Shown piece by piece: positions 4,999 to 35,662 of a stretch of DNA of 37,164 nucleotides. The notes below the pieces were generated by a model. That model was not told the DNA's origin and searched no databases. It saw only the letters and a program-made list of their open reading frames with translations. This DNA is from a virus (taxonomy: Duplodnaviria; Heunggongvirae; Uroviricota; Caudoviricetes), in the IMG/VR virus record IMGVR_UViG_2690315831_000002. One strand, 5' to 3'. The translations under genes and the position numbers were made by a program. Numbering within the stretch: the stretch's first letter is position 1; each line of letters opens with the position of its first letter.

Positions 4999-5039
4999 GC
5001 TGCGGATCTAAGCGGTCATCGCAACGGTGAAGTTATAAA

Positions 5040-5140
5040 TTTTGTGATACCAACATCGATGCAATAGCATGACAATAGCAATAGCTATTGGTGTGGTCAA
5101 TAGCAATTAGTATTGATAATGTTTGATATACTTGTTCTGA
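5040..5140. promoter_or_regulatory. OL-like operator/promoter region
   Basis: Four 'CAATAGC' half-sites including the 12-bp perfect palindrome 'caatagctattg', plus 'ATTGATAATG'; the same half-site and 'ATTGATAATG' recur in the cI-cro intergenic region. Confidence 0.45.
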
Positions 5141-5381
5141 TTGATAATTAAATGAATTTTTATAAAAAAGAGTATGAAGACTTATTGGTGTGGCTGAAAT
5201 TTGTACAGCTTTAATGTGCCTCGTGACAGAGGGGCATCGGGTTGTGGTGAGCTCGGTAGGTTGGCAGCAAATTTAATCGAATATTGGTAGTCTGAGTTCT
5301 TATGTGTATTTTTTTAGTCAGTTGCTAAATGATACATAAATGACTTATTAGCCCCGCCATCGCTTTGTACGGGGCGTTTAT

Positions 5382-6989
5382 TTAATTTATCTTTTCAACA
5401 TTTCCATGAATCAACAAGTCGTAGGCAAGAAATAGTTTCCTATACTGGGTTTTTAAATTGTCAACGTCGCATGCCTTGAATTGAACAAACGCTTCTTTTT
5501 TAACATAATCTTCAATCTCCTCTTTGGGGATATTTTTTATGTTCTTAATGACTATAGACAATTCTTTGTACTTTTTGAACGTTGCATCCTTTATATCTTT
5601 GATGTTGGTGTAAATTTTATTTGCATTGATTTTATCTAAGGTGATTTTATTGAGCAAGTCGTCTAGTTTTCCGTGGCGTTCAATGCGTTGATTTAGTTTT
5701 AACACATATTTAGCTGGCAAACTTAACTCTTTCAAATTACATGAGGTTATAGTTTTTGAAAATGGAAGTTGTAATGAGTTTACTGAACCTAATATGAAAT
5801 CTATGGCTAATTTATTAGATATTTCATTTTTATTAAATAAGTAGTCTTCAAGATAATTTATTTCTTTAACTTGTGTGAATACATACTTTTTATCGCCTAG
5901 AGCAACAACTAAATTTTTTCCTTGTTTAACACTTTCTTCAAGTCTGTCTAAGTCAGAAGGTGAAACCAATAGAGTATCTAAGTGCCCTTTTTCACCCTCA
6001 TTAATGATAAGTGTTTTAATGGCTCTTTGATACCTTAAAACATCATAAGGTGAGAGCCCTTCATCAACAGCACTGATCTCATCATAGATCTGTTTATAGT
6101 TATCTGTTTTAACAGATGTATATGTAATTTGTAGCTGTTGATCGGTAATCTGTTTTGGTACTACTTCCTGTTCATTCTCTTTATATTCAATCAAAATTAT
6201 TCTTTCAGCTGATTTTCGACCATCTTCTCTAGGTAGTTGTGAGGAAAAATCAGAAAGAAGTTTCTTTACATTCCTGTCAGTTAAAGAATATCCAAGAAAA
6301 ACTATTGGATTTTTAATCATGTTAGATAGTATCTTGGCACTAATGAGTATAGATTTGTTGTCATATTTTTCGTAATCATCTTTATTTATGATTATTGAGT
6401 GTGGATCCTTTATATCACCATGTATTTTGTATAACTCACTCCAGCCAATAGTATCTTCGAAAAAACCATTATTTCCAATATAGAGTTTTGGAATTACATT
6501 TTGCTCTTGAAGTAAATTTTCTATGAAAGCATCATAATTTGTAGTGATGATTATCTTGGCCTTTTTTATTAATGTTTTAAATGATGCTAATTCATCAAGA
6601 TTTACATCCTTTCTGATTGTGTTATTAGAAAATCTTTGGCATATGGCGTATTTAAATGGTGAAATATCTTCACTAAAAACCCTCTTGGCATCTAGTCCAT
6701 TTAATTTTAATTTGCCAGTCCTAAACAATAGATTGTAATCATTTTCAATTTTACTTGCTGCCTCTGTATAAATCTTATGATCGATATCATTATCACTGTT
6801 ATTTTTATGTGATTCTTTTATTGTTAAAAGATAACTATAGAAATCATTTGTGGGATTTGTTATTTTCCAATACTCGTTTAATAGCTCTTCCCACGTTGGG
6901 TAGTTCTCTAAATATCTTTTTGAAATGCCTGAGCCAATAAAGACTATTGGGTAATTTTTGAATTCAAAATTTTTTTTTGACATATCCAT
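5382..6989 (-). CDS. SIR2-like (ThsA-type) putative NAD+ hydrolase with unassigned C-terminal domain; candidate anti-phage effector
   Basis: 535 aa; SIR2 hallmark motifs 'PIVFIGSGIS', 'IITTNYDAFIE', 'YKIHGDIKDP', 'KDDYEKY', 'PIVFLGYSLTDRNV' resemble the Thoeris ThsA SIR2 domain as recalled; very AT-rich versus flanks; sits between OL and cI (lambda rexAB position), co-oriented with cI; GGA 5 nt upstream of ATG. Confidence 0.8.
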   Translation of the reverse strand: MDMSKKNFEFKNYPIVFIGSGISKRYLENYPTWEELLNEYWKITNPTNDFYSYLLTIKESHKNNSDNDIDHKIYTEAASKIENDYNLLFRTGKLKLNGLDAKRVFSEDISPFKYAICQRFSNNTIRKDVNLDELASFKTLIKKAKIIITTNYDAFIENLLQEQNVIPKLYIGNNGFFEDTIGWSELYKIHGDIKDPHSIIINKDDYEKYDNKSILISAKILSNMIKNPIVFLGYSLTDRNVKKLLSDFSSQLPREDGRKSAERIILIEYKENEQEVVPKQITDQQLQITYTSVKTDNYKQIYDEISAVDEGLSPYDVLRYQRAIKTLIINEGEKGHLDTLLVSPSDLDRLEESVKQGKNLVVALGDKKYVFTQVKEINYLEDYLFNKNEISNKLAIDFILGSVNSLQLPFSKTITSCNLKELSLPAKYVLKLNQRIERHGKLDDLLNKITLDKINANKIYTNIKDIKDATFKKYKELSIVIKNIKNIPKEEIEDYVKKEAFVQFKACDVDNLKTQYRKLFLAYDLLIHGNVEKIN

Positions 6990-7095
6990 ATACCTTAAGC
7001 TCTGCTTGAAACATCCATTCTATAAATTATGAGGATGTCAGCATGTCTCACCAAAACATCATCTGGTTATCTTGATGAAATCTGTCATTAATAAT

Positions 7096-7788
7096 CTACC
7101 CATGTTTTCTATATGTCTGTGGCATGCTCCCAATAACTTTCCCAAATATAAATACCCGATTCATTTCGTCTTTTTCTATCGGGTCCCACGGTGAGTAGCT
7201 CTTGTTATCAGAGATAACCAGCAGCTTATCCTTCATCATTTGCAGGCGCTTTACATGGGCTGTGTCGTCGTACAGAAACGCATAGATACCATCACCGTCG
7301 AAAGATTTAACAGTGATATCAACGAACAGAAGATCACCTGGTTCGATCGTTCCTGACATGCTGTCACCGCGTACGTTAATGATGCGGATATTTTCTGCCT
7401 TCCTGCCATCGAACATGTGACGAGCATCGTCAAACGAGTACTCAACCGAGCGTAGGACTTCTACAAACTCACGGTTGATGACACCCGGCCCAGCACTGAC
7501 TTCTATATCAAGAACGTCAATTTTGAAGTATTTGGAATGGTTGACAGCAGGCTTCCCTGATTGTTGACCGTCATTTCTCATCGGGCCTATGCCTGATGAG
7601 AGCCACTCTGTTCGAACACCCAATGCATTAGCTATTTCAACAATTTTTGTTGAGCCGCGTGCGTTGCCGCTTGTCAGTCTCCAGATTGTGGGTTGAGCTA
7701 CGCCAGACGCCTTTGCAAGAGCGCCTTGAGACATTCCAGATTGTTCCATCGCTAGGTTTAAGCGATCAGCAAGAGTTTCTTTTTTCAT
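7096..7788 (-). CDS. cI: CI-type prophage repressor (HTH_XRE + S24 LexA-like autopeptidase)
   Basis: N-terminal HTH 'MSQGALAKASGVAQPTIWRL'; C-terminal S24 signature 'VRGDSMSGTIEPGDLLFVD' plus downstream Lys; divergent from cro; start set at internal ATG ('MKKETLADRL'), the longest ORF would start at TTG 7824. Confidence 0.85.
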   Translation of the reverse strand: MKKETLADRLNLAMEQSGMSQGALAKASGVAQPTIWRLTSGNARGSTKIVEIANALGVRTEWLSSGIGPMRNDGQQSGKPAVNHSKYFKIDVLDIEVSAGPGVINREFVEVLRSVEYSFDDARHMFDGRKAENIRIINVRGDSMSGTIEPGDLLFVDITVKSFDGDGIYAFLYDDTAHVKRLQMMKDKLLVISDNKSYSPWDPIEKDEMNRVFIFGKVIGSMPQTYRKHG

Positions 7789-7898
7789 AAGTTTTAATTT
7801 ATACGCTTGCGTATTGATGGTCAAAACACGTTTTGCTATTGATTGGATTAATACGCATTGCTATTATCCATTCATTGTAATACCAATAGGAATTGATA
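7789..7898. promoter_or_regulatory. OR-like operator region with divergent pRM/pR-type promoters
   Basis: Intergenic between divergent cI and cro; palindrome 'ATACGCttGCGTAT'; 'GCTATTG'/'CAATAG' half-sites and 'ATTGATAATG' shared with the OL-like region. Confidence 0.5.
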
Positions 7899-10613: not shown

Positions 10614-11633
10614 ATGTGTTACAGTAATGTTACAGATCGTGATCTTATGGGGCAAATTGCTACTAAACTAAATGACTATCGAAACCCTCCTCAAGGTGGC
10701 ATGAGCATTGATCATGTTAATCGATGGATTAATCAATTTGAGTTAACTGATAGGCGATTTGTCTTAGAGGAAACGGACCGATTAATGGGGATTGGATACT
10801 TTTCTGAGAACGACTATCGCAGGGTTATTAGTAGTATCGCCACTGATGAGCAAAATGAAAGTTTCTTTCAAACTGCAGCGTTTCTCGATATTCAGAACCA
10901 AGGTACCAGTCAATCTGAGTTTTTGGATTTACTTCGAGATGATTGTGTAGAAGAATTCAACGTTGTGACCAGACTTTCACAACGTCAAAGAGTTAGTTCA
11001 TTCCGTGAATTTATTTACGTTGACGATGTTTTATTCTCCGGAGCTAAGGCAATCAATGATTTAATTTGGTTTATTGAGCACTTTAAACTCCAAAATATTA
11101 CAATATTGGTGTACTTTTTAGGTGGGCACACATATTCAACATGGAAGATAAAAGACCAACTTGAACGAAGATTTGCGGGCAGAAATATTTCAGTTGGCGT
11201 TGGTGGAGGTGAGTTTGTATTTGTTGAAAATAAACTCCGAAATAGTTCGAATTCGGAGGTTTTATGGCCAAAAGCGCAAAGTGTATCAATACCTGAATGG
11301 GCTGACGGTCAAATACATTATTTAGGAACATATCGAAACGGTTACGTCGCGAATAAAATTTTTCCTGATGAGCAGAGACGTGATCGTTTTGAAACTATTC
11401 TGACAAAAGTTGGGTTTGATATCCTTGGTCATAGTCAAAATCCCTCTGCTGTCATAAAGCCCTTAGGCTTTTCAACTTTCAATGGTGTTGGGTTTGGCGG
11501 AACTATCTTTACTTTCAGAAACTGCCCAAATAATACCCCTCTCGCGTACTGGTGGGGAACTTATCTTCGAACAGGAAATAGAGCTCTGGATTGCTGGTAT
11601 CCACTTATGAAGCGTAATGTGTATAATCGGTGA
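10614..11633 (+). CDS. Hypothetical 339-aa protein, upstream partner of a NADAR protein (candidate toxin/effector)
   Basis: ORF with AGGA 7 nt upstream; stop overlaps the start of the next gene (GTGA); lower GC than lambda-like flanks; only a weak PRTase-like loop 'FIYVDDVLFSGAKAI'; no confident fold assignment. Confidence 0.7.
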   Translation: MCYSNVTDRDLMGQIATKLNDYRNPPQGGMSIDHVNRWINQFELTDRRFVLEETDRLMGIGYFSENDYRRVISSIATDEQNESFFQTAAFLDIQNQGTSQSEFLDLLRDDCVEEFNVVTRLSQRQRVSSFREFIYVDDVLFSGAKAINDLIWFIEHFKLQNITILVYFLGGHTYSTWKIKDQLERRFAGRNISVGVGGGEFVFVENKLRNSSNSEVLWPKAQSVSIPEWADGQIHYLGTYRNGYVANKIFPDEQRRDRFETILTKVGFDILGHSQNPSAVIKPLGFSTFNGVGFGGTIFTFRNCPNNTPLAYWWGTYLRTGNRALDCWYPLMKRNVYNR

Positions 11634-12247
11634 TCATGAGCTATAGACTATACCTGTTTCACAACACAGTTTCTTTCAGGAAAACCACCGAGAAATGGGG
11701 TGGTCTTTCCAACATGGCCAAAGGATATCCGCTCTTCGTTAATGGTATACCCATTCAATCGAGTGAAATTCTTTACCAAGCATGCCGATATCCAGACTAT
11801 CCAGATATCCAAAGGGTTATTATTACCCAAGCCAACCCTTACGAAGCTAAACAAACCGCCAGAACCTTCGAGGCCAAAACCCGTACTGGTTGGGAAAAAA
11901 ATCGAGTTTCGGTAATGAAATGGTGTGTCTGCGTTAAGCTTTGCCAGAACTGGGAATCGTTCTTCGCGCTATTGGATAGCACAGGAGATCATGACATTGT
12001 TGAGCACTCAGAGAAGGACCAATTTTGGGGGGCTAGTAAGGACTCCGAAGGTAACTTTTATGGCATGAACGTGTTAGGTCGTATCCTTATGGATGCGAGA
12101 GATATTGCAAGAAAGAAGGGGCCTGCAGGGTTTGCTACGATACCGCCGCTACCCTTGGATAGGTTTCTTCTGCTCGGGGAGCAAATACGTGATGTCACTT
12201 TCTCTCCACCACCGATGGATTCAGGGCAAAGCTTATCGCTTTTTTAA
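11630..12247 (+). CDS. NADAR (YbiA/DUF1768-like) domain protein
   Basis: 'GWEKNRVSVMKWCVCVKLCQNWESFFALLDSTGDHDIVEHSEKDQFWGASKDSEGNFYGMNVLGRILMDARD' parallels E. coli YbiA as recalled; translationally coupled to upstream gene (GTG 11630 or ATG 11636). Confidence 0.8.
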   Translation: MIMSYRLYLFHNTVSFRKTTEKWGGLSNMAKGYPLFVNGIPIQSSEILYQACRYPDYPDIQRVIITQANPYEAKQTARTFEAKTRTGWEKNRVSVMKWCVCVKLCQNWESFFALLDSTGDHDIVEHSEKDQFWGASKDSEGNFYGMNVLGRILMDARDIARKKGPAGFATIPPLPLDRFLLLGEQIRDVTFSPPPMDSGQSLSLF

Positions 12248-15515: not shown

Positions 15516-16319
15516 CTATTTCTTTTTGGGAAGTGGATACTTTAAGCTAACATTTTGAGTTTCTATATCTCGTGGCCCTCGAGTTTTATCATAAAAATAC
15601 CAGATATTAAATTTTCTCTCAGTGTGCCATGTATCATATTGCAAGTGATCCCAGCCTAAATATGAAGCAACATAGTTTGATACTCTTATTTTGGCTTCAG
15701 ATGAAGCTTTTCCTTGATATGCGCACATAACCGCACCTAAGAAAAAATCGGCTAGCTGAATGTTTTCAGATGCTTTAGAGTCTTTTGTCACTACACTGCT
15801 GATTATCCCTTTACGACCAAATTTTCTATTCAATATGTTATTGGCAATAACATTTAGTTCTTCATCAGCCTTTTTATAACGAGATGCGATAGGATCAACT
15901 TCAATCCTGAAGTAACTGTCTCTTTCAGGGTGTGCAGAAATTACAGAGCTAATTTTTGTGGTAATGAGATTTGTGAAGTGCTTTCTCCTTGCCAGGTCAT
16001 AATCTCCATTATGAAATGCCTTATTTACTATTGATTTTTCAACCACGATACAATGAAAAGCTAGCCAAGGAACTCTAAAGAATAAGTCGATCAGCTCAAG
16101 ATAAAATTCAGAGTATCTTTTTGAATGGGCTTTTTGCCATTTTATTTCTTCAAAAAAAACATGTTTTCTGCGTAGTTCTCTGATTAGTTGACAGAAATCC
16201 CCACGGCGTTGGTACTTCATCCACAGACTGCCAAAGCCGTAGAAACGTTGTCCATCAATGCCAGATTCATCGCAAGCAATATGCCAAATTAACTTACCAA
16301 TGTTATCTTTTTCTGTCAT
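15516..16319 (-). CDS. DUF3800-like protein (uncharacterised; candidate defence/moron gene)
   Basis: 267 aa with N-terminal 'IACDESG' and C-terminal 'QLAD', fitting the DES / QxxD description of DUF3800 as recalled; AT-rich; antisense between Q and the holin. Confidence 0.7.
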   Translation of the reverse strand: MTEKDNIGKLIWHIACDESGIDGQRFYGFGSLWMKYQRRGDFCQLIRELRRKHVFFEEIKWQKAHSKRYSEFYLELIDLFFRVPWLAFHCIVVEKSIVNKAFHNGDYDLARRKHFTNLITTKISSVISAHPERDSYFRIEVDPIASRYKKADEELNVIANNILNRKFGRKGIISSVVTKDSKASENIQLADFFLGAVMCAYQGKASSEAKIRVSNYVASYLGWDHLQYDTWHTERKFNIWYFYDKTRGPRDIETQNVSLKYPLPKKK

Positions 16320-31673: not shown

Positions 31674-33656
31674 TTGCTCAACAAGTATAATGGAGTTCCC
31701 GTGGATACAGCAGAACATGATGGCAAATTTGCTTGGGCTAGTTTTTATGAGGCTTTTGCCAACGCGTTACTGACTTGGCGAAATCGTAGAGATGAATTAG
31801 TCAAAGGTATTCATCTAATTGCCTCAGGTGTGGAAGGAATGTCCCATCTGCAGGACAAATCTATTATGGGAGAGATCTTTCCCTTAAAAGACATTTGTCC
31901 GTTTACTACTATGGGCTTGTTCAATCGTAACTTGACCGACAGCAATCGCAAAATTATTGCTGCCAAGCTAGCGAATTTGTTGGGCGTGAACGAACCGATT
32001 CCTGACTCCTTTGCCGGAATCCCGCTGTTGAATAACCAAAAATCTTGGTTCTTTGGTTATGAAAAGTCACGCGACCCTAATGACATTGAATGCTTGTGGG
32101 AAATGTTCTCGCAGGCAATGACCTTTGCGGATAACCAGAATACTAACTCTGCAGACTTCACTGCCGCATATGACATCGCTTCTACAGTAATGAATGTCGG
32201 TTGGAATCTCACCATGGGGTTGTACTGGACCCGTCCTTGGTTCTACCCTACTTTAGATAGCCAGTCGCAGTATTACATTCAGACAGTGTTAAACATTAAG
32301 ATCATTAAAAACGGGGCAAAAGGTCGCTGTAGTGGACAAAGTTACCTGAGTCTTATGCGGGCGCTGAACGAGGTCTTTACCCAACCAAACTATCCGGTTC
32401 ATTCTTTCCCAGAACTTTCTTTATCAGCGTGGAATACAGATCTTAGCCAGTCTAAAGATGAGGTGGCAAATAGAACGTGGAAAGCCTCTTTACTGAATAA
32501 AATTAAGGCGTTATGCCTGAAAAAAAATGGCCCTTATTTCACTGCTTCGGAGTTGGAAGAAAACTACTTGGACGTATTCAAGGTAGAGCATCCTGAGAGC
32601 AAAACAGTTACAAGCTCAATCTACTTTTATCTACAGAAACTATGCAATGATGATGAGTTAAAGTCCCTTGAGTCCGGAAATTATGAATACCTGAATTTTG
32701 AGAAAAACGAATCCCAGACGATAACTGAGGAAACTGTCGAAGAGAGTGCGCCGTTGCCAAAACTCACTCACGTTCCTTATGACATCAGTCATCTGGTGCA
32801 GGATGGCTGTTTCTTGGAAGAGGCTAAGATCCAACTCACACTTCAGCGCCTGATCGACAAGAAAAACCTGATATTACAAGGACCACCCGGAACTGGAAAA
32901 ACCTGGTTAGCGCGACGTTTGGCGTACTGCTTGATGGGAGAAAAAGCACCTGAGCGTATTAGCGCGGTGCAATTTCACCCGAACCTCTCTTACGAAGACT
33001 TTATTCGCGGCTGGCGTCCAGGTAAAGAAGGGCAATTGACGCTAATTGATGGACCTTTTGTAAATGCAATCAAAACTGCAGTCAATAATCCTACCTCGAA
33101 ATATGTGGTGATAATTGAAGAGATTAATCGTGGCAATCCGGCGCAAATCTTCGGTGAAACACTCACGTTGATGGAAGCAGATAAACGCACGCCGACTGAG
33201 GCATTATCTCTTTCCTATCCTAAAAATGATGATGAAAAAATATACATTCCTGAGAATCTATATATCATCGGTACGATGAATATTGCAGACCGCTCACTCG
33301 CACTACTTGACCTAGCGCTGCGCCGTCGTTTCGCGTTTATCGATCTAAAGCCAGCTTTTAATGACGCGTGGAGAAACTGGGTAAATTATAATTACGCAAT
33401 TGATTTTGACATGTTAGCATTCATCAAATCTCGACTGACGGTACTTAACGATATGCTGGCAAAAGATGTTACCTTAGGACCACAGTTTTGTATCGGTCAC
33501 AGCTATGTCACCCCAGCTATCGGCCAAAAAATCAACGATGCCCAGGCTTGGTATGAACAAGTCGTTGATACAGAGATCTGCCCTTTGCTCGCCGAATATT
33601 GGTTCGATGCTCCAAATAAAGTCGATGAAGCCAGAAAAGTGTTATTAGCAAAATGA
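31674..33656 (+). CDS. mcrB: McrB-like AAA+ GTPase subunit of a type IV restriction system, with long unassigned N-terminal domain; start uncertain (TTG)
   Basis: C-terminal 300 aa closely resemble E. coli McrB (e.g. 'NLILQGPPGTGKTWLARRLAYCLMGEKAPERISAVQFHPNLSYEDFIRGWRP', 'YIIGTMNIADRSLALLDLALRRRFAFIDL') as recalled; N-terminal about 370 aa unlike the K-12 McrB N-terminal domain. Confidence 0.85.
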   Translation: MLNKYNGVPVDTAEHDGKFAWASFYEAFANALLTWRNRRDELVKGIHLIASGVEGMSHLQDKSIMGEIFPLKDICPFTTMGLFNRNLTDSNRKIIAAKLANLLGVNEPIPDSFAGIPLLNNQKSWFFGYEKSRDPNDIECLWEMFSQAMTFADNQNTNSADFTAAYDIASTVMNVGWNLTMGLYWTRPWFYPTLDSQSQYYIQTVLNIKIIKNGAKGRCSGQSYLSLMRALNEVFTQPNYPVHSFPELSLSAWNTDLSQSKDEVANRTWKASLLNKIKALCLKKNGPYFTASELEENYLDVFKVEHPESKTVTSSIYFYLQKLCNDDELKSLESGNYEYLNFEKNESQTITEETVEESAPLPKLTHVPYDISHLVQDGCFLEEAKIQLTLQRLIDKKNLILQGPPGTGKTWLARRLAYCLMGEKAPERISAVQFHPNLSYEDFIRGWRPGKEGQLTLIDGPFVNAIKTAVNNPTSKYVVIIEEINRGNPAQIFGETLTLMEADKRTPTEALSLSYPKNDDEKIYIPENLYIIGTMNIADRSLALLDLALRRRFAFIDLKPAFNDAWRNWVNYNYAIDFDMLAFIKSRLTVLNDMLAKDVTLGPQFCIGHSYVTPAIGQKINDAQAWYEQVVDTEICPLLAEYWFDAPNKVDEARKVLLAK

Positions 33657-34774
33657 CGACAATAACCGGGAGTGAGCAACATACAGCATCACGTATTCCC
33701 ATGCGAAATATCTGGATGCTGATGCTGTACGCTTCAGATCTGTTTCGTCAGTTAGGGCGCAATCAGATCGCAGTAGAAGATAACCCAGCAGAAATCCCCG
33801 ACCTGGTGGCGACAATCCTCCTTCATGAGATTACGCTGCGCCGACGTCGCAATTTAAATATGGGATACCAAACTTGTCATGCGGCCCTGAACCGGGTGAG
33901 AGGGCGCATTGACATACTGTATACTGCCAGTCATCAACTACTGGAACGGGGACAGGTTGCCTGCCATTTTCAAGACATAACCCTCAACACCCCCCGAAAT
34001 CGCTATGTTCGCTGTGCGTTAGAACGTCTGGCCTCAATCATAGTGAAACCGTCTTTGGCGGCAGATTGCCATTTTATGGCAATATCACTTCGCCGTGAGG
34101 GGATAAATGGAGGATATCCTGCCCCCCACGAATTACCCTCAGTGTGGCGTTTTGGACGCCATGATGCCGCAGATAAACCGATGGTCGATGCCGCACGATT
34201 AGCTTTTGAACTGCTGATGCCGACCGAAGATCAAGGCCAATATCTTTTACCTGCGCCCTCAAATAACCTTTACTGGATGAGAAGACTATTTGAAAAAGGT
34301 ATCGCTGGCTTATATCGTGTACACCTTGCCAAAACAACTTGGCAGGTCTCTGCAGGGAAAGAGCTGAAATGGGCGTTGAGCGATCAAAGTGCAGGTAGTG
34401 CAGAGATTTTCCCGACAATGAAGTCAGACATTATTCTGGAACACAAGACTGCCCAGCGGCGTATTATTATCGATACCAAATTTAATTCGATTCTGACAAA
34501 GGGTTGGCATCGGGAGCAATCACTACGTAATGGCTATATTTATCAGCTATATACCTACCTTAGAACACAGGAGAACAAGACGGATCCGCTTTCGCTCAAT
34601 GCCGCTGGTCTTCTACTTCATCCAGCTGTTGGCTATATGCTTAATGAGTATGTTGTCACTCAGGGACATAAGATCCATTTTGCTACAGTAGATATGACGG
34701 TAGATGCTAAAGCAATTAAAAAACAATTGCTGGCAATAGCCCATGATTGTGCAGGAGTCGCGGTTGATGACTAA
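33653..34774 (+). CDS. mcrC: McrC-like nuclease subunit
   Basis: 373 aa, start overlaps mcrB stop (ATGA); N-terminus 'IPMRNIWMLMLYA' parallels McrC 'IPVRNIYYMLTYA' as recalled; 'IIIDTKF' matches the PD-(D/E)xK-type core position. Confidence 0.85.
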   Translation: MTTITGSEQHTASRIPMRNIWMLMLYASDLFRQLGRNQIAVEDNPAEIPDLVATILLHEITLRRRRNLNMGYQTCHAALNRVRGRIDILYTASHQLLERGQVACHFQDITLNTPRNRYVRCALERLASIIVKPSLAADCHFMAISLRREGINGGYPAPHELPSVWRFGRHDAADKPMVDAARLAFELLMPTEDQGQYLLPAPSNNLYWMRRLFEKGIAGLYRVHLAKTTWQVSAGKELKWALSDQSAGSAEIFPTMKSDIILEHKTAQRRIIIDTKFNSILTKGWHREQSLRNGYIYQLYTYLRTQENKTDPLSLNAAGLLLHPAVGYMLNEYVVTQGHKIHFATVDMTVDAKAIKKQLLAIAHDCAGVAVDD

Positions 34775-35479
34775 CCATCCTATAAGGCACTGGCTGTAAT
34801 ATAATCATTAGTTTCAATTAAGTAGCTGTTATCCGTGCTTAGTCATCATATGACGCACCACGGTCTAATTTTCCTGCTCATACATTGATATATCCTTGTC
34901 GAGCCCGGAAAGTCGCAGTCCACTATTAGGTATACCGATTGCCAGCACCAAAAGCTTCTTTGTAATTATTATATCGGGGAATGCCTATTTTTTAGTGACA
35001 ATATCAGATAGCAAATAATAAGCGGTGCCGGTAATGGATGTTATGTTTAATGTATAGACACAGCCATCATAAAATAAACGTCTGTTGTTCGCTCATAACC
35101 GACATTTATCTCAGTTATGGAAGATAATTATGTATGCAGATAATGGGGCAGACAGTCGTGGAGTAAACAAGGTTTTGCACTGCTTGGCGGCATCGTTATC
35201 TTATTTTTAATTATGTGCCTCTTAACATAAGTTGGGACAAAACAGAGACACATAAGGTCTCACAAAGGTCTGCAAGGCCTCACATGTATTGAGGTGTTAA
35301 TAAAATGTAGACTTGTAATTTGGATATAAATGGTAGAGAAAACCTTTCCCCAAAATAAAAACGAACGTCAATGAAATCAAACGGTTGAATAAAGTTGATT
35401 TTGGCTAATAAAAAAACAATAAAATAATTTTTATCATTAAATATCAATGACTTGAACTTAATGTTTTTATATACTGTTA

Positions 35480-35637
35480 CGCCATATGGGCTGGACTGAA
35501 GCCGCAGACCTGATTGTTAAAGGTATGGAAGGCGCAATCAATGCGAAGACCGTAACCTATGACTTCGAGCGTCTGATGGAAGGCGCTAAACTGCTGAAAT
35601 GTTCAGAATTTGGTGATGCGATCATCAAGAACATGTA
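35480..35637 (+). pseudogene. icdC: icd 3' fragment (icdC-type duplication marking attR)
   Basis: Encodes '...[51 protein letters not shown]', the C-terminal about 50 residues of isocitrate dehydrogenase with no upstream icd sequence; matches the about 160-bp icd duplication known for e14/phage 21 integration. Confidence 0.85.
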
Positions 35638-35662
35638 ATCACTACATGTGTTTAATATTGCA

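Follow-up and report, generated by a model that had tools for sequence, protein, structure and literature searches.

A McrBC-family gene pair with a DUF8425 and DpnI-type winged-helix N-terminus at the attR end of a decayed icd-integrated prophage of Escherichia coli

McrBC, the textbook example of a modification-dependent restriction enzyme, has reader domains of which only a handful have known targets. According to two papers (PMC7680126, PMC11090510), N-terminal readers are exchanged to change the target in Thermococcus gammatolerans McrB, which carries a YTH reader, and in other McrBs. An architecture in which an N-terminal domain (NTD), a winged helix (wH) and an NTPase are combined with a McrC-like partner was likewise noted, without characterisation, by Helbrecht et al. 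2024 (PMC11037411). The winged helix of the nuclease DpnI binds fully methylated G6mATC (6mA, N6-methyladenine) via recognition-helix residues E228, K229, R231, Q232 and Q235 (PMC3424567). END nucleases sense many hypermodified phage DNAs via an inactivated EndoIII/Ogg1-like domain, and their authors state, without giving accessions, that the same sensor is also fused to a 'McrB-like GTPase' (PMC12191111). Free-standing helix-hairpin-helix (HhH) glycosylases act in phage defence as well (bioRxiv 10.1101/2025.10.29.685425). The subject of the present analysis is a mcrB-like gene and a mcrC gene located between positions 31,674 and 34,774 of IMG/VR record IMGVR_UViG_2690315831_000002, a Caudoviricetes stretch of 37,164 nucleotides that was analysed as a whole and is referred to as the window. 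With a probability of roughly 0.72, the pair constitutes an intact type IV restriction system of the McrBC family, made up of two genes and carried as attR-end cargo of a decayed, icd-integrated lambdoid prophage, in which the N-terminal domain DUF8425 is most likely the reader.

The architecture is already known in the literature, and the E. coli pair belongs to a large uncharacterised subfamily noted before. No E. coli example of the NTD-wH-NTPase and McrC combination was seen in the available portion of Helbrecht et al. 2024, and a literature search found no published mention of WP_000379042, PF28527 or DUF8425. The gene structure, domain make-up, intact catalytic motifs, conservation and genomic position given below are direct observations. 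The features of the pair are as follows, with residue numbers of the mcrB-like protein counted from GTG 31701.

31674..31676, + strand: upstream in-frame TTG, first possible start past TAA 31665; its use is less likely
31692..31695, + strand: Shine-Dalgarno-like motif GGAG, 5 nt ahead of GTG 31701, read from the sequence
31701..33656, + strand: mcrB-like gene, 651 aa from GTG; identical to WP_000379042.1 ('AAA family ATPase')
31722..32444, + strand: DUF8425 (PF28527), residues ~8-248, mostly helical, assigned through homologues
31890-31907, + strand: conserved DUF8425 motif DICPFT
32016-32054, + strand: conserved DUF8425 motif GIPLLNNQKSWFF
32196-32258, + strand: conserved DUF8425 motif VGWNLTMGLYWTRPWFYPTLD
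32445..32705, + strand: DpnI-type winged-helix domain, residues ~249-335
32610-32642, + strand: recognition helix TSSIYFYLQKL of the winged helix
32706..32807, + strand: acidic linker, residues ~336-369, variable in the alignment and of low confidence (predicted local distance difference test, pLDDT, 45-49 at residues 344-357)
32808..33653, + strand: McrB-type AAA+ GTPase and lid, residues 370-651
32880-32903, + strand: Walker A GPPGTGKT of the GTPase domain
33105-33131, + strand: Walker B VVIIEEINR of the GTPase domain
33276-33293, + strand: NxxD signature MNIADR of the GTPase domain
33318-33332, + strand: LRRRF of the GTPase domain
33653..34774, + strand: mcrC gene, 373 aa, with its ATG inside the ATGA overlap with the mcrB-like stop
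within 34424-34483, + strand: McrC PD-(D/E)xK residues D259, D274 and K276

The two genes are read from + strand open reading frames (ORFs) at 31674..33656 (660 aa counted from TTG) and 33653..34774 (373 aa, ATG), and the shared ATGA indicates that the pair is translationally coupled. An earlier reading made from the sequence alone (the sequence-only reading) had recognised this overlap and the McrB/McrC likeness of both products, and both points are borne out. Residues 370-651 are 47% identical to residues 178-457 of K-12 McrB over 282 aa (BLASTP, E 4e-83) and match the solved McrB GTPase, PDB 6hz4 (E 4e-77). The McrC protein reaches 355.6 bits against the NCBIfam McrC model (cut-off 338), aligning from residue 12, and 75.4 bits against Pfam McrBC, at only 24% identity to K-12 McrC. 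Its residues D259, D274 and K276 are invariant across five aligned McrCs (the present one and those of K-12, Leclercia, a Syntrophaceae metagenome-assembled genome (MAG) and Deinococcus). By contrast, the mcrB-like protein failed the full-length McrB equivalog test (NCBIfam NF008457, 265.5 bits versus a cut-off of 637), with ORF residues 378-654 falling on model positions 176-452. Because the GTPase matches, the full-length equivalog fails and the N-terminus cannot be aligned, these comparisons identify the protein as a McrBC family member and not an EcoKMcrB orthologue.

The sequence-only reading had also held that the first ~370 aa do not resemble the K-12 McrB reader. Domain search and BLASTP agree: residues 1-377 gave no Pfam match at E ≤ 10 and no alignment with the K-12 McrB N-terminus. 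The canonical McrB reader (DUF3578), which that reading had named as a possible refutation, was rejected since nothing aligns with K-12 McrB residues 1-175. It is reasonable to suppose from the sequence that the modified-base specificity is unlike that of K-12 McrB.

Regarding the start codon, the claim of a TTG start with no ATG until residue 56 stands in part only. The ORF is bounded upstream by an in-frame TAA at 31665, and codon 56 (from TTG) is the earliest in-frame ATG, but GTG 31701, nine codons past TTG 31674, is most likely the real start, judging from the GGAG 5 nt upstream, its use by the Prokaryotic Genome Annotation Pipeline (PGAP) for the identical protein WP_000379042.1, and the matching start of the relatives. 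The closest of these (P0001, P0002) open with MDAAEKDGRFAW and MDAVEQDVRFEW, where the aligned point here reads VDTAEHDGKFAW. TTG 31674 is the less likely start: inspection of the sequence found no Shine-Dalgarno-like motif upstream of it, PGAP does not use it, and the relatives begin at the GTG-equivalent residue. For mcrC, the PGAP start in strain A35 (33701, alternative M17) was rejected in favour of 33653, because the alignment to NCBIfam McrC begins at residue 12, the conserved IPxRN motif, kept in K-12 McrC and other relatives, sits upstream of 33701, PGAP picks the overlapping start in E. coli GDSC2227PM, and the Leclercia pair overlaps likewise. A frameshifted or truncated N-terminus, the other refuting case raised earlier, was not borne out; such an artefact is excluded by the upstream in-frame stop, by relatives in other genera that are collinear from the same start, and by an equal-length allele in another E. 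coli.

A pair of DUF8425-containing mcrB and mcrC genes recurs in Leclercia, the Syntrophaceae MAG and megaplasmid MP1 of Deinococcus radiodurans. In the last of these (strain R1, L006 4277-8214) the PGAP start of the DUF8425-containing McrB looks too far downstream. In the window, the neighbours of the pair are an acyltransferase gene, a pin pseudogene and an icd fragment, and no methyltransferase gene was found beside it in a scan that took in the adjacent genes and ten further ORFs of the window, as expected of a type IV system. Two other kinds of McrBC were set aside: the CoCoNuT-type, RNA-targeting kind, since the protein has no coiled coil and its signature is the canonical NxxD, and the sequence-specific LlaJI/LlaI type, since there is neither a separate DNA-binding R1 subunit nor an adjacent methyltransferase gene.

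The N-terminal region, which the sequence-only reading had treated as one long non-canonical domain, is indeed non-canonical but consists of two domains, DUF8425 and a DpnI-type winged helix. A homologue search with residues 1-370 returned 280 proteins from many phyla, nearly all of them McrB-type ATPases. An AlphaFold2 model of the region built with 75 homologues (pLDDT 90.0) displays a helical domain at 1-245, a winged helix at 249-330 and an acidic disordered linker. A profile of seven family winged-helix segments finds DpnI at E 6e-13, and Pfam DpnI_C scores 36-49 bits in relatives P0002, P0049, P0080 and P0005; in the E. coli protein itself, Pfam DpnI_C is below detection. In the profile alignment the equivalents of DpnI E228, K229, R231, Q232 and Q235 are S, S, Y, F and Q, such that Q235 alone is retained. 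The recognition helix reads TSSIYFYLQKL here, KEKIRQQLQIL in DpnI and ESTIARQLQIL in the family consensus, with an intermediate form (ENSIYYYLQIL) in Leclercia. The aromatic version is retained in the orthologues of Buttiauxella, Serratia grimesii, Citrobacter freundii, Erwinia amylovora and Lonsdalea, which are 85-90% identical over the N-terminal domain. Since it is kept across several Enterobacterales genera, the altered helix does not represent random decay.

E. coli methylates GATC with Dam, and a DpnI-like GATC specificity would therefore be suicidal in this host. Reading of Dam sites by the winged helix is unlikely, because only one of the five pocket residues survives and the altered aromatic helix is conserved; the sequence fits a changed winged-helix specificity. 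An explanation of the pair that keeps the winged helix as the specificity module would have it read 6mA outside GATC, for example that of promiscuous phage adenine methylases, with DUF8425 acting as a scaffold or in assembly. Its clear homology to the 6mA-reading domain of DpnI speaks for this, as does the conservation of the altered helix across genera, which implies selection. PMC11037411, moreover, reports toxicity to Dam+ cells and cleavage of 6mA DNA for related winged-helix fusions. However, the same paper gives the 6mA/GATC motif as kept in only ~10% of winged-helix fusions, four of the five DpnI contacts have been substituted here, and the winged helix is missing altogether from many DUF8425-McrB relatives, which leaves DUF8425 as the constant N-terminal element. 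A 6mA-reading winged helix thus appears unlikely, albeit the best placed of the alternatives to DUF8425 as reader.

DUF8425 was assigned here by homology, as the protein is 41-72% identical across the domain to proteins bearing PF28527. Among the precomputed Pfam labels of the relatives, PF28527 is DUF8425 and PF28529 is McrB_lid, and their layout is DUF8425 - DpnI_C - AAA_5 - McrB_lid. The region itself had no match in Pfam (a copy without PF28527), NCBIfam or PADLOC, and neither Pfam at E ≤ 10 on 25 members nor searches of PDB sequences by phmmer and two profiles linked it to a known family. A DUF8425 profile searched against 1.84 billion representative proteins returned 2,435 clusters at E ≤ 1e-3, 1,999 of them at E ≤ 1e-10; at 50% identity the family thus numbers some 2,400 clusters, spread over many phyla. 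A scan for its motif placed the domain in 564 of 185,579 species genomes. AAA_5 lies downstream in all long members sampled, and the segment linking DUF8425 to the GTPase varies between DpnI_C, Mrr_N and nothing. About one third of the DUF8425-McrB relatives carry an extra module of ~150 aa ahead of DUF8425, without a Pfam match, which may be a further reader domain. This module (residues 1-~160 of P0005, P0007, P0028, P0039 and P0123; CWFVGA...GIWE...GDRIAIKS...VSVMAIKAIG) is absent from the E. coli protein. DUF8425 also occurs without any GTPase, fused to FRG on Bacteroidales plasmids and together with EVE in P0305, and on this distribution it behaves as an autonomous module. The FRG-DUF8425 fusion is a 494-aa protein at L005 3998-5482 of Parabacteroides distasonis plasmid NZ_OY725774.1; in it and in P0305, the hairpin motif of DUF8425 looks nearer to the canonical HhH-GPD form (VGKGKLS...PLD).

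Modelled alone with AlphaFold2, DUF8425 gave a pLDDT of 93.8 and a predicted template modelling score of 0.91. A Foldseek search with this model returned nothing below E 0.001. Its top 38 hits, all sub-threshold, were nearly all HhH-GPD glycosylases (SsOgg, E 0.33, TM 0.30-0.35; MjOgg, OGG1, MutY, Tm1821). Two programs name the HhH-GPD superfamily as the structural neighbours of the domain, both below significance, the best neighbours at this sub-threshold level being Ogg and D. radiodurans EndoIII. In the model, a helix at 150-160 is followed by a hairpin, a helix at 169-177, a Pro-rich loop and then D186 at the N-terminal end of another helix, an arrangement that would correspond to the HhH-GPD signature. 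Furthermore, VGWNLTMGLYWTRPWFYPTLD becomes VGKGKLSIVLFYVNPEKYVPLD or VGPAKLTIGLFWMNPEKYLALD in divergent members, which looks closer to G-x-G...K...P..D. On the basis of this modelling, an HhH-GPD origin of DUF8425 is close to an even bet, and the END sensors and free-standing HhH glycosylases of the literature make the idea plausible. More tentatively, DUF8425 could be an HhH-GPD-like, probably non-catalytic pocket for a broad range of hypermodified phage bases, with the Enterobacterales branch having re-tooled a 6mA-reading DpnI-type winged helix for coexistence with Dam. If true, the pair would be a native E. coli system in which to learn by what rules McrBC senses a broad range of modified bases.

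Several observations weigh against DUF8425 as a glycosylase-like reader. Sequence and profile searches gave no glycosylase match for the domain, and its comparison with E. coli EndoIII (Nth) by hhalign returned a probability below 1%. In D. radiodurans, P0305 and P0121 an Asn replaces the conserved Asp, which therefore makes no clean catalytic or family signature. DUF8425 could be a scaffold and not the reader, given that a winged helix, Mrr_N or EVE sits beside it in many relatives. In addition, according to PMC11037411, the sole published purification attempt in the subfamily failed.

A variant of the glycosylase idea would make DUF8425 an active DNA glycosylase, with the resulting abasic site or stalled complex then being processed by the McrBC motor and nuclease. 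Its nearest, if sub-threshold, fold neighbours are indeed such enzymes, and the carboxylate (D186, Glu in few members) is placed like the HhH-GPD catalytic Asp, after the hairpin and Pro-rich loop; phage defence by the free-standing enzymes provides a precedent. Still, the Asn replacements listed above argue against catalysis, END-type sensors are reportedly catalytically dead (PMC12191111), and the structural likeness yielded no residue-level alignment to any glycosylase. We regard an active enzyme as improbable.

Under the preferred reading, in which DUF8425 is the reader of a McrBC-type enzyme, subunit 1 (651 aa) comprises DUF8425, the DpnI-type winged helix and the McrB GTPase with its lid, and subunit 2 is McrC, with a PD-(D/E)xK nuclease. 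If EcoKMcrBC is taken as the model on grounds of homology, the GTPase would assemble into hexamers, into which McrC would dock and stimulate GTP hydrolysis. The N-terminal modules would bind a mark on foreign DNA, the DNA would be translocated from the bound sites, and McrC would cleave upon blocked translocation. DUF8425 may here provide a pocket, derived from a glycosylase, that accepts bulky or hypermodified bases, while the remodelled winged helix would grip duplex DNA. The mark would differ from that of K-12 McrB, and it cannot be E. coli Dam or Dcm methylation. That cleavage would depend on GTP and on a DNA modification, and what the target may be, are inferred.

The cassette is present in 309 of 5,426 complete E. 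coli genomes (~6%), always on the chromosome; 289 of these carriers cover at least 80% of the query, and 305 are at least 99% identical. The mcrA-icdC junction is found in 330 E. coli genomes, many of them K-12 laboratory strains, so that this variant, native to E. coli, is about as common at the icd slot as mcrA (289-309 versus 330 genomes). Between two E. coli alleles, the mcrB-like gene has 12 synonymous and 4 non-synonymous differences (dN/dS 0.09) and mcrC has 2 synonymous and none non-synonymous; none of the non-synonymous differences falls in DUF8425 or the winged helix. These counts, though small, are consistent with purifying selection. That the pair is a functionless relic of a dead prophage is very improbable, for although the host element is decayed (frameshifted tail fibre gene, pin pseudogene, missing tail genes) and a search of 50,697 phage records with the N-terminal 370 aa found no homologue, the two ORFs have their full length and every catalytic motif is intact, the allele differences are mainly synonymous, the locus is shared nearly unchanged by hundreds of genomes, and its 85-90% identical orthologues extend to five other Enterobacterales genera.

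The window as a whole is a decayed lambdoid prophage, with a lambda-type integrase (1-1143), RecT, YqaJ, a CI-like repressor, a Q antiterminator and head genes, followed past the head genes by lom and the frameshifted tail fibre gene. The boundaries of the cassette are formed by the following features.

31101..31341, + strand: pin-type invertase 3' remnant (pseudogene), 86% identical to the K-12 pinE 3' end; annotated by PGAP with an internal stop and as incomplete
35300..35479, + strand: conserved prophage end adjoining attR, 180 bp, found alongside the icd fragment in 1463 of 5426 E. coli genomes, irrespective of the cargo next to it
35480..35638, + strand: duplicated icd 3' fragment (icdC-like), 95.9% identical to K-12 from icdC onward; right prophage boundary

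The pin remnant is the left edge of the cargo cassette, and the conserved 180 bp at 35300-35479 are probably the att arm bound by the integrase. The interval 31342-35479 has no K-12 match. In K-12 e14 the corresponding interval holds mcrA, in the order pinE-mcrA-icdC, just as the sequence-only reading had stated. Its proposal of a swappable restriction slot needs to be modified: the attR-side slot is swappable, but it is a general cargo slot that hosts two unrelated type IV systems and not a dedicated restriction slot, since sitABCD and small genes occupy it in other E. coli, namely in four opened genomes sharing the 180 bp. In GDSC2227PM, which shares the 180 bp too, the same McrBC pair lies beside a macro-domain gene. 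There (L007 558-1448) the pair is preceded by macro-domain and tail-fibre assembly genes, not by the acyltransferase and pin remnant. Because these neighbours differ, either the cassette has moved between different prophage backbones or the neighbouring cargo has been exchanged. Scans of the cassette for Rfam families, repeats, promoters and terminators gave nothing informative.

Further candidate cargo was observed elsewhere in the window. A 362-aa acyltransferase of the Acyl_transf_3 family is encoded on the - strand (29545-30633, 36-39% GC), with the tail fibre genes on one side and the pin remnant on the other; our guess is a surface-polysaccharide acetylase of the kind typical of lysogenic conversion. 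A 535-aa SIR2_2 protein is encoded at 5382-6989 (- strand), beside the CI-like repressor gene (7096-7824) and in a stretch of 29-33% GC (5001-7000). It has a full-length match to the PADLOC candidate defence family PDC-S25 (778.7 bits) and a weaker one to ThsA-type SIR2, and on these matches its gene is probably a second defence cargo of the same prophage. The overlapping + strand genes at 10614-11633 and 11630-12247 encode PRTase-CE (136.3 bits) and NADAR (83.9 bits) proteins with weak PADLOC matches to PRTase_III-A and PDC-M42C; located among early and replication genes, they look, by sequence, like a conflict or defence-type moron. Finally, a 267-aa DUF3800 protein (15516-16319, - strand; PADLOC PDC-M04A, 116.2 bits) adjoins the Q antiterminator gene, which is on the opposite strand.

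In combination, the sequence comparisons suggest that the pair probably attacks modified foreign DNA of a kind other than the target of K-12 McrB. The family has thousands of members, and its sensing domain is still labelled 'domain of unknown function'. As the host is E. coli, coliphage panels with defined DNA modifications are directly usable and could assign a function to DUF8425. Such work could also reveal how a Dam+ cell tolerates a winged helix of 6mA-reader descent, and the system may account for differences between strains in how readily phage therapy works or modified DNA can be introduced by transformation.

Compared with described systems, the pair shares with EcoKMcrBC the AAA+ GTPase with Walker A/B, NxxD and RRRF motifs, the PD-(D/E)xK McrC, the overlapping genes and the lack of an adjacent methyltransferase gene. 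It differs in that the N-terminal DUF3578 reader of 5-methylcytosine is replaced by ~370 aa of DUF8425 and winged helix, in the distance between the McrCs (24% identity), and in its location in an icd prophage, whereas EcoKMcrBC lies in the hsd-mrr 'immigration control' region. EcoKMcrA of e14 is also a type IV enzyme and occupies the same spot between pin invertase and icd duplication at attR; however, the proteins are unrelated, EcoKMcrA being a single-chain HNH nuclease that carries an NEco reader. In R.DpnI (PDB 4esj/4kyw) the winged helix is joined to a PD-(D/E)xK nuclease, as opposed to the GTPase here, and its methyl-pocket and base-contact residues E228, K229, R231 and Q232 have given way to S, S, Y and F. 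END nucleases resemble the pair as modification-dependent defence with a proposed glycosylase-derived sensor of non-canonical bases (PMC12191111), and the best, though sub-threshold, structural neighbours of DUF8425 come from the families to which that sensor is related; yet sequence and profile searches showed no link between DUF8425 and END/EndoIII, and the effector is McrBC here and a PLD nuclease in END. The readers of T. gammatolerans McrB and other McrBs with swapped readers are small base-flipping PUA-superfamily domains, unlike the 240-aa helical DUF8425 with its winged helix. With the NTD-wH-NTPase/McrC class of Helbrecht et al. 2024, the pair shares the layout, here made up of an N-terminal DUF8425 and a DpnI-like winged helix before the NTPase; the E. 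coli protein is set apart by a winged helix that has diverged below the Pfam threshold and by its Dam+ host.

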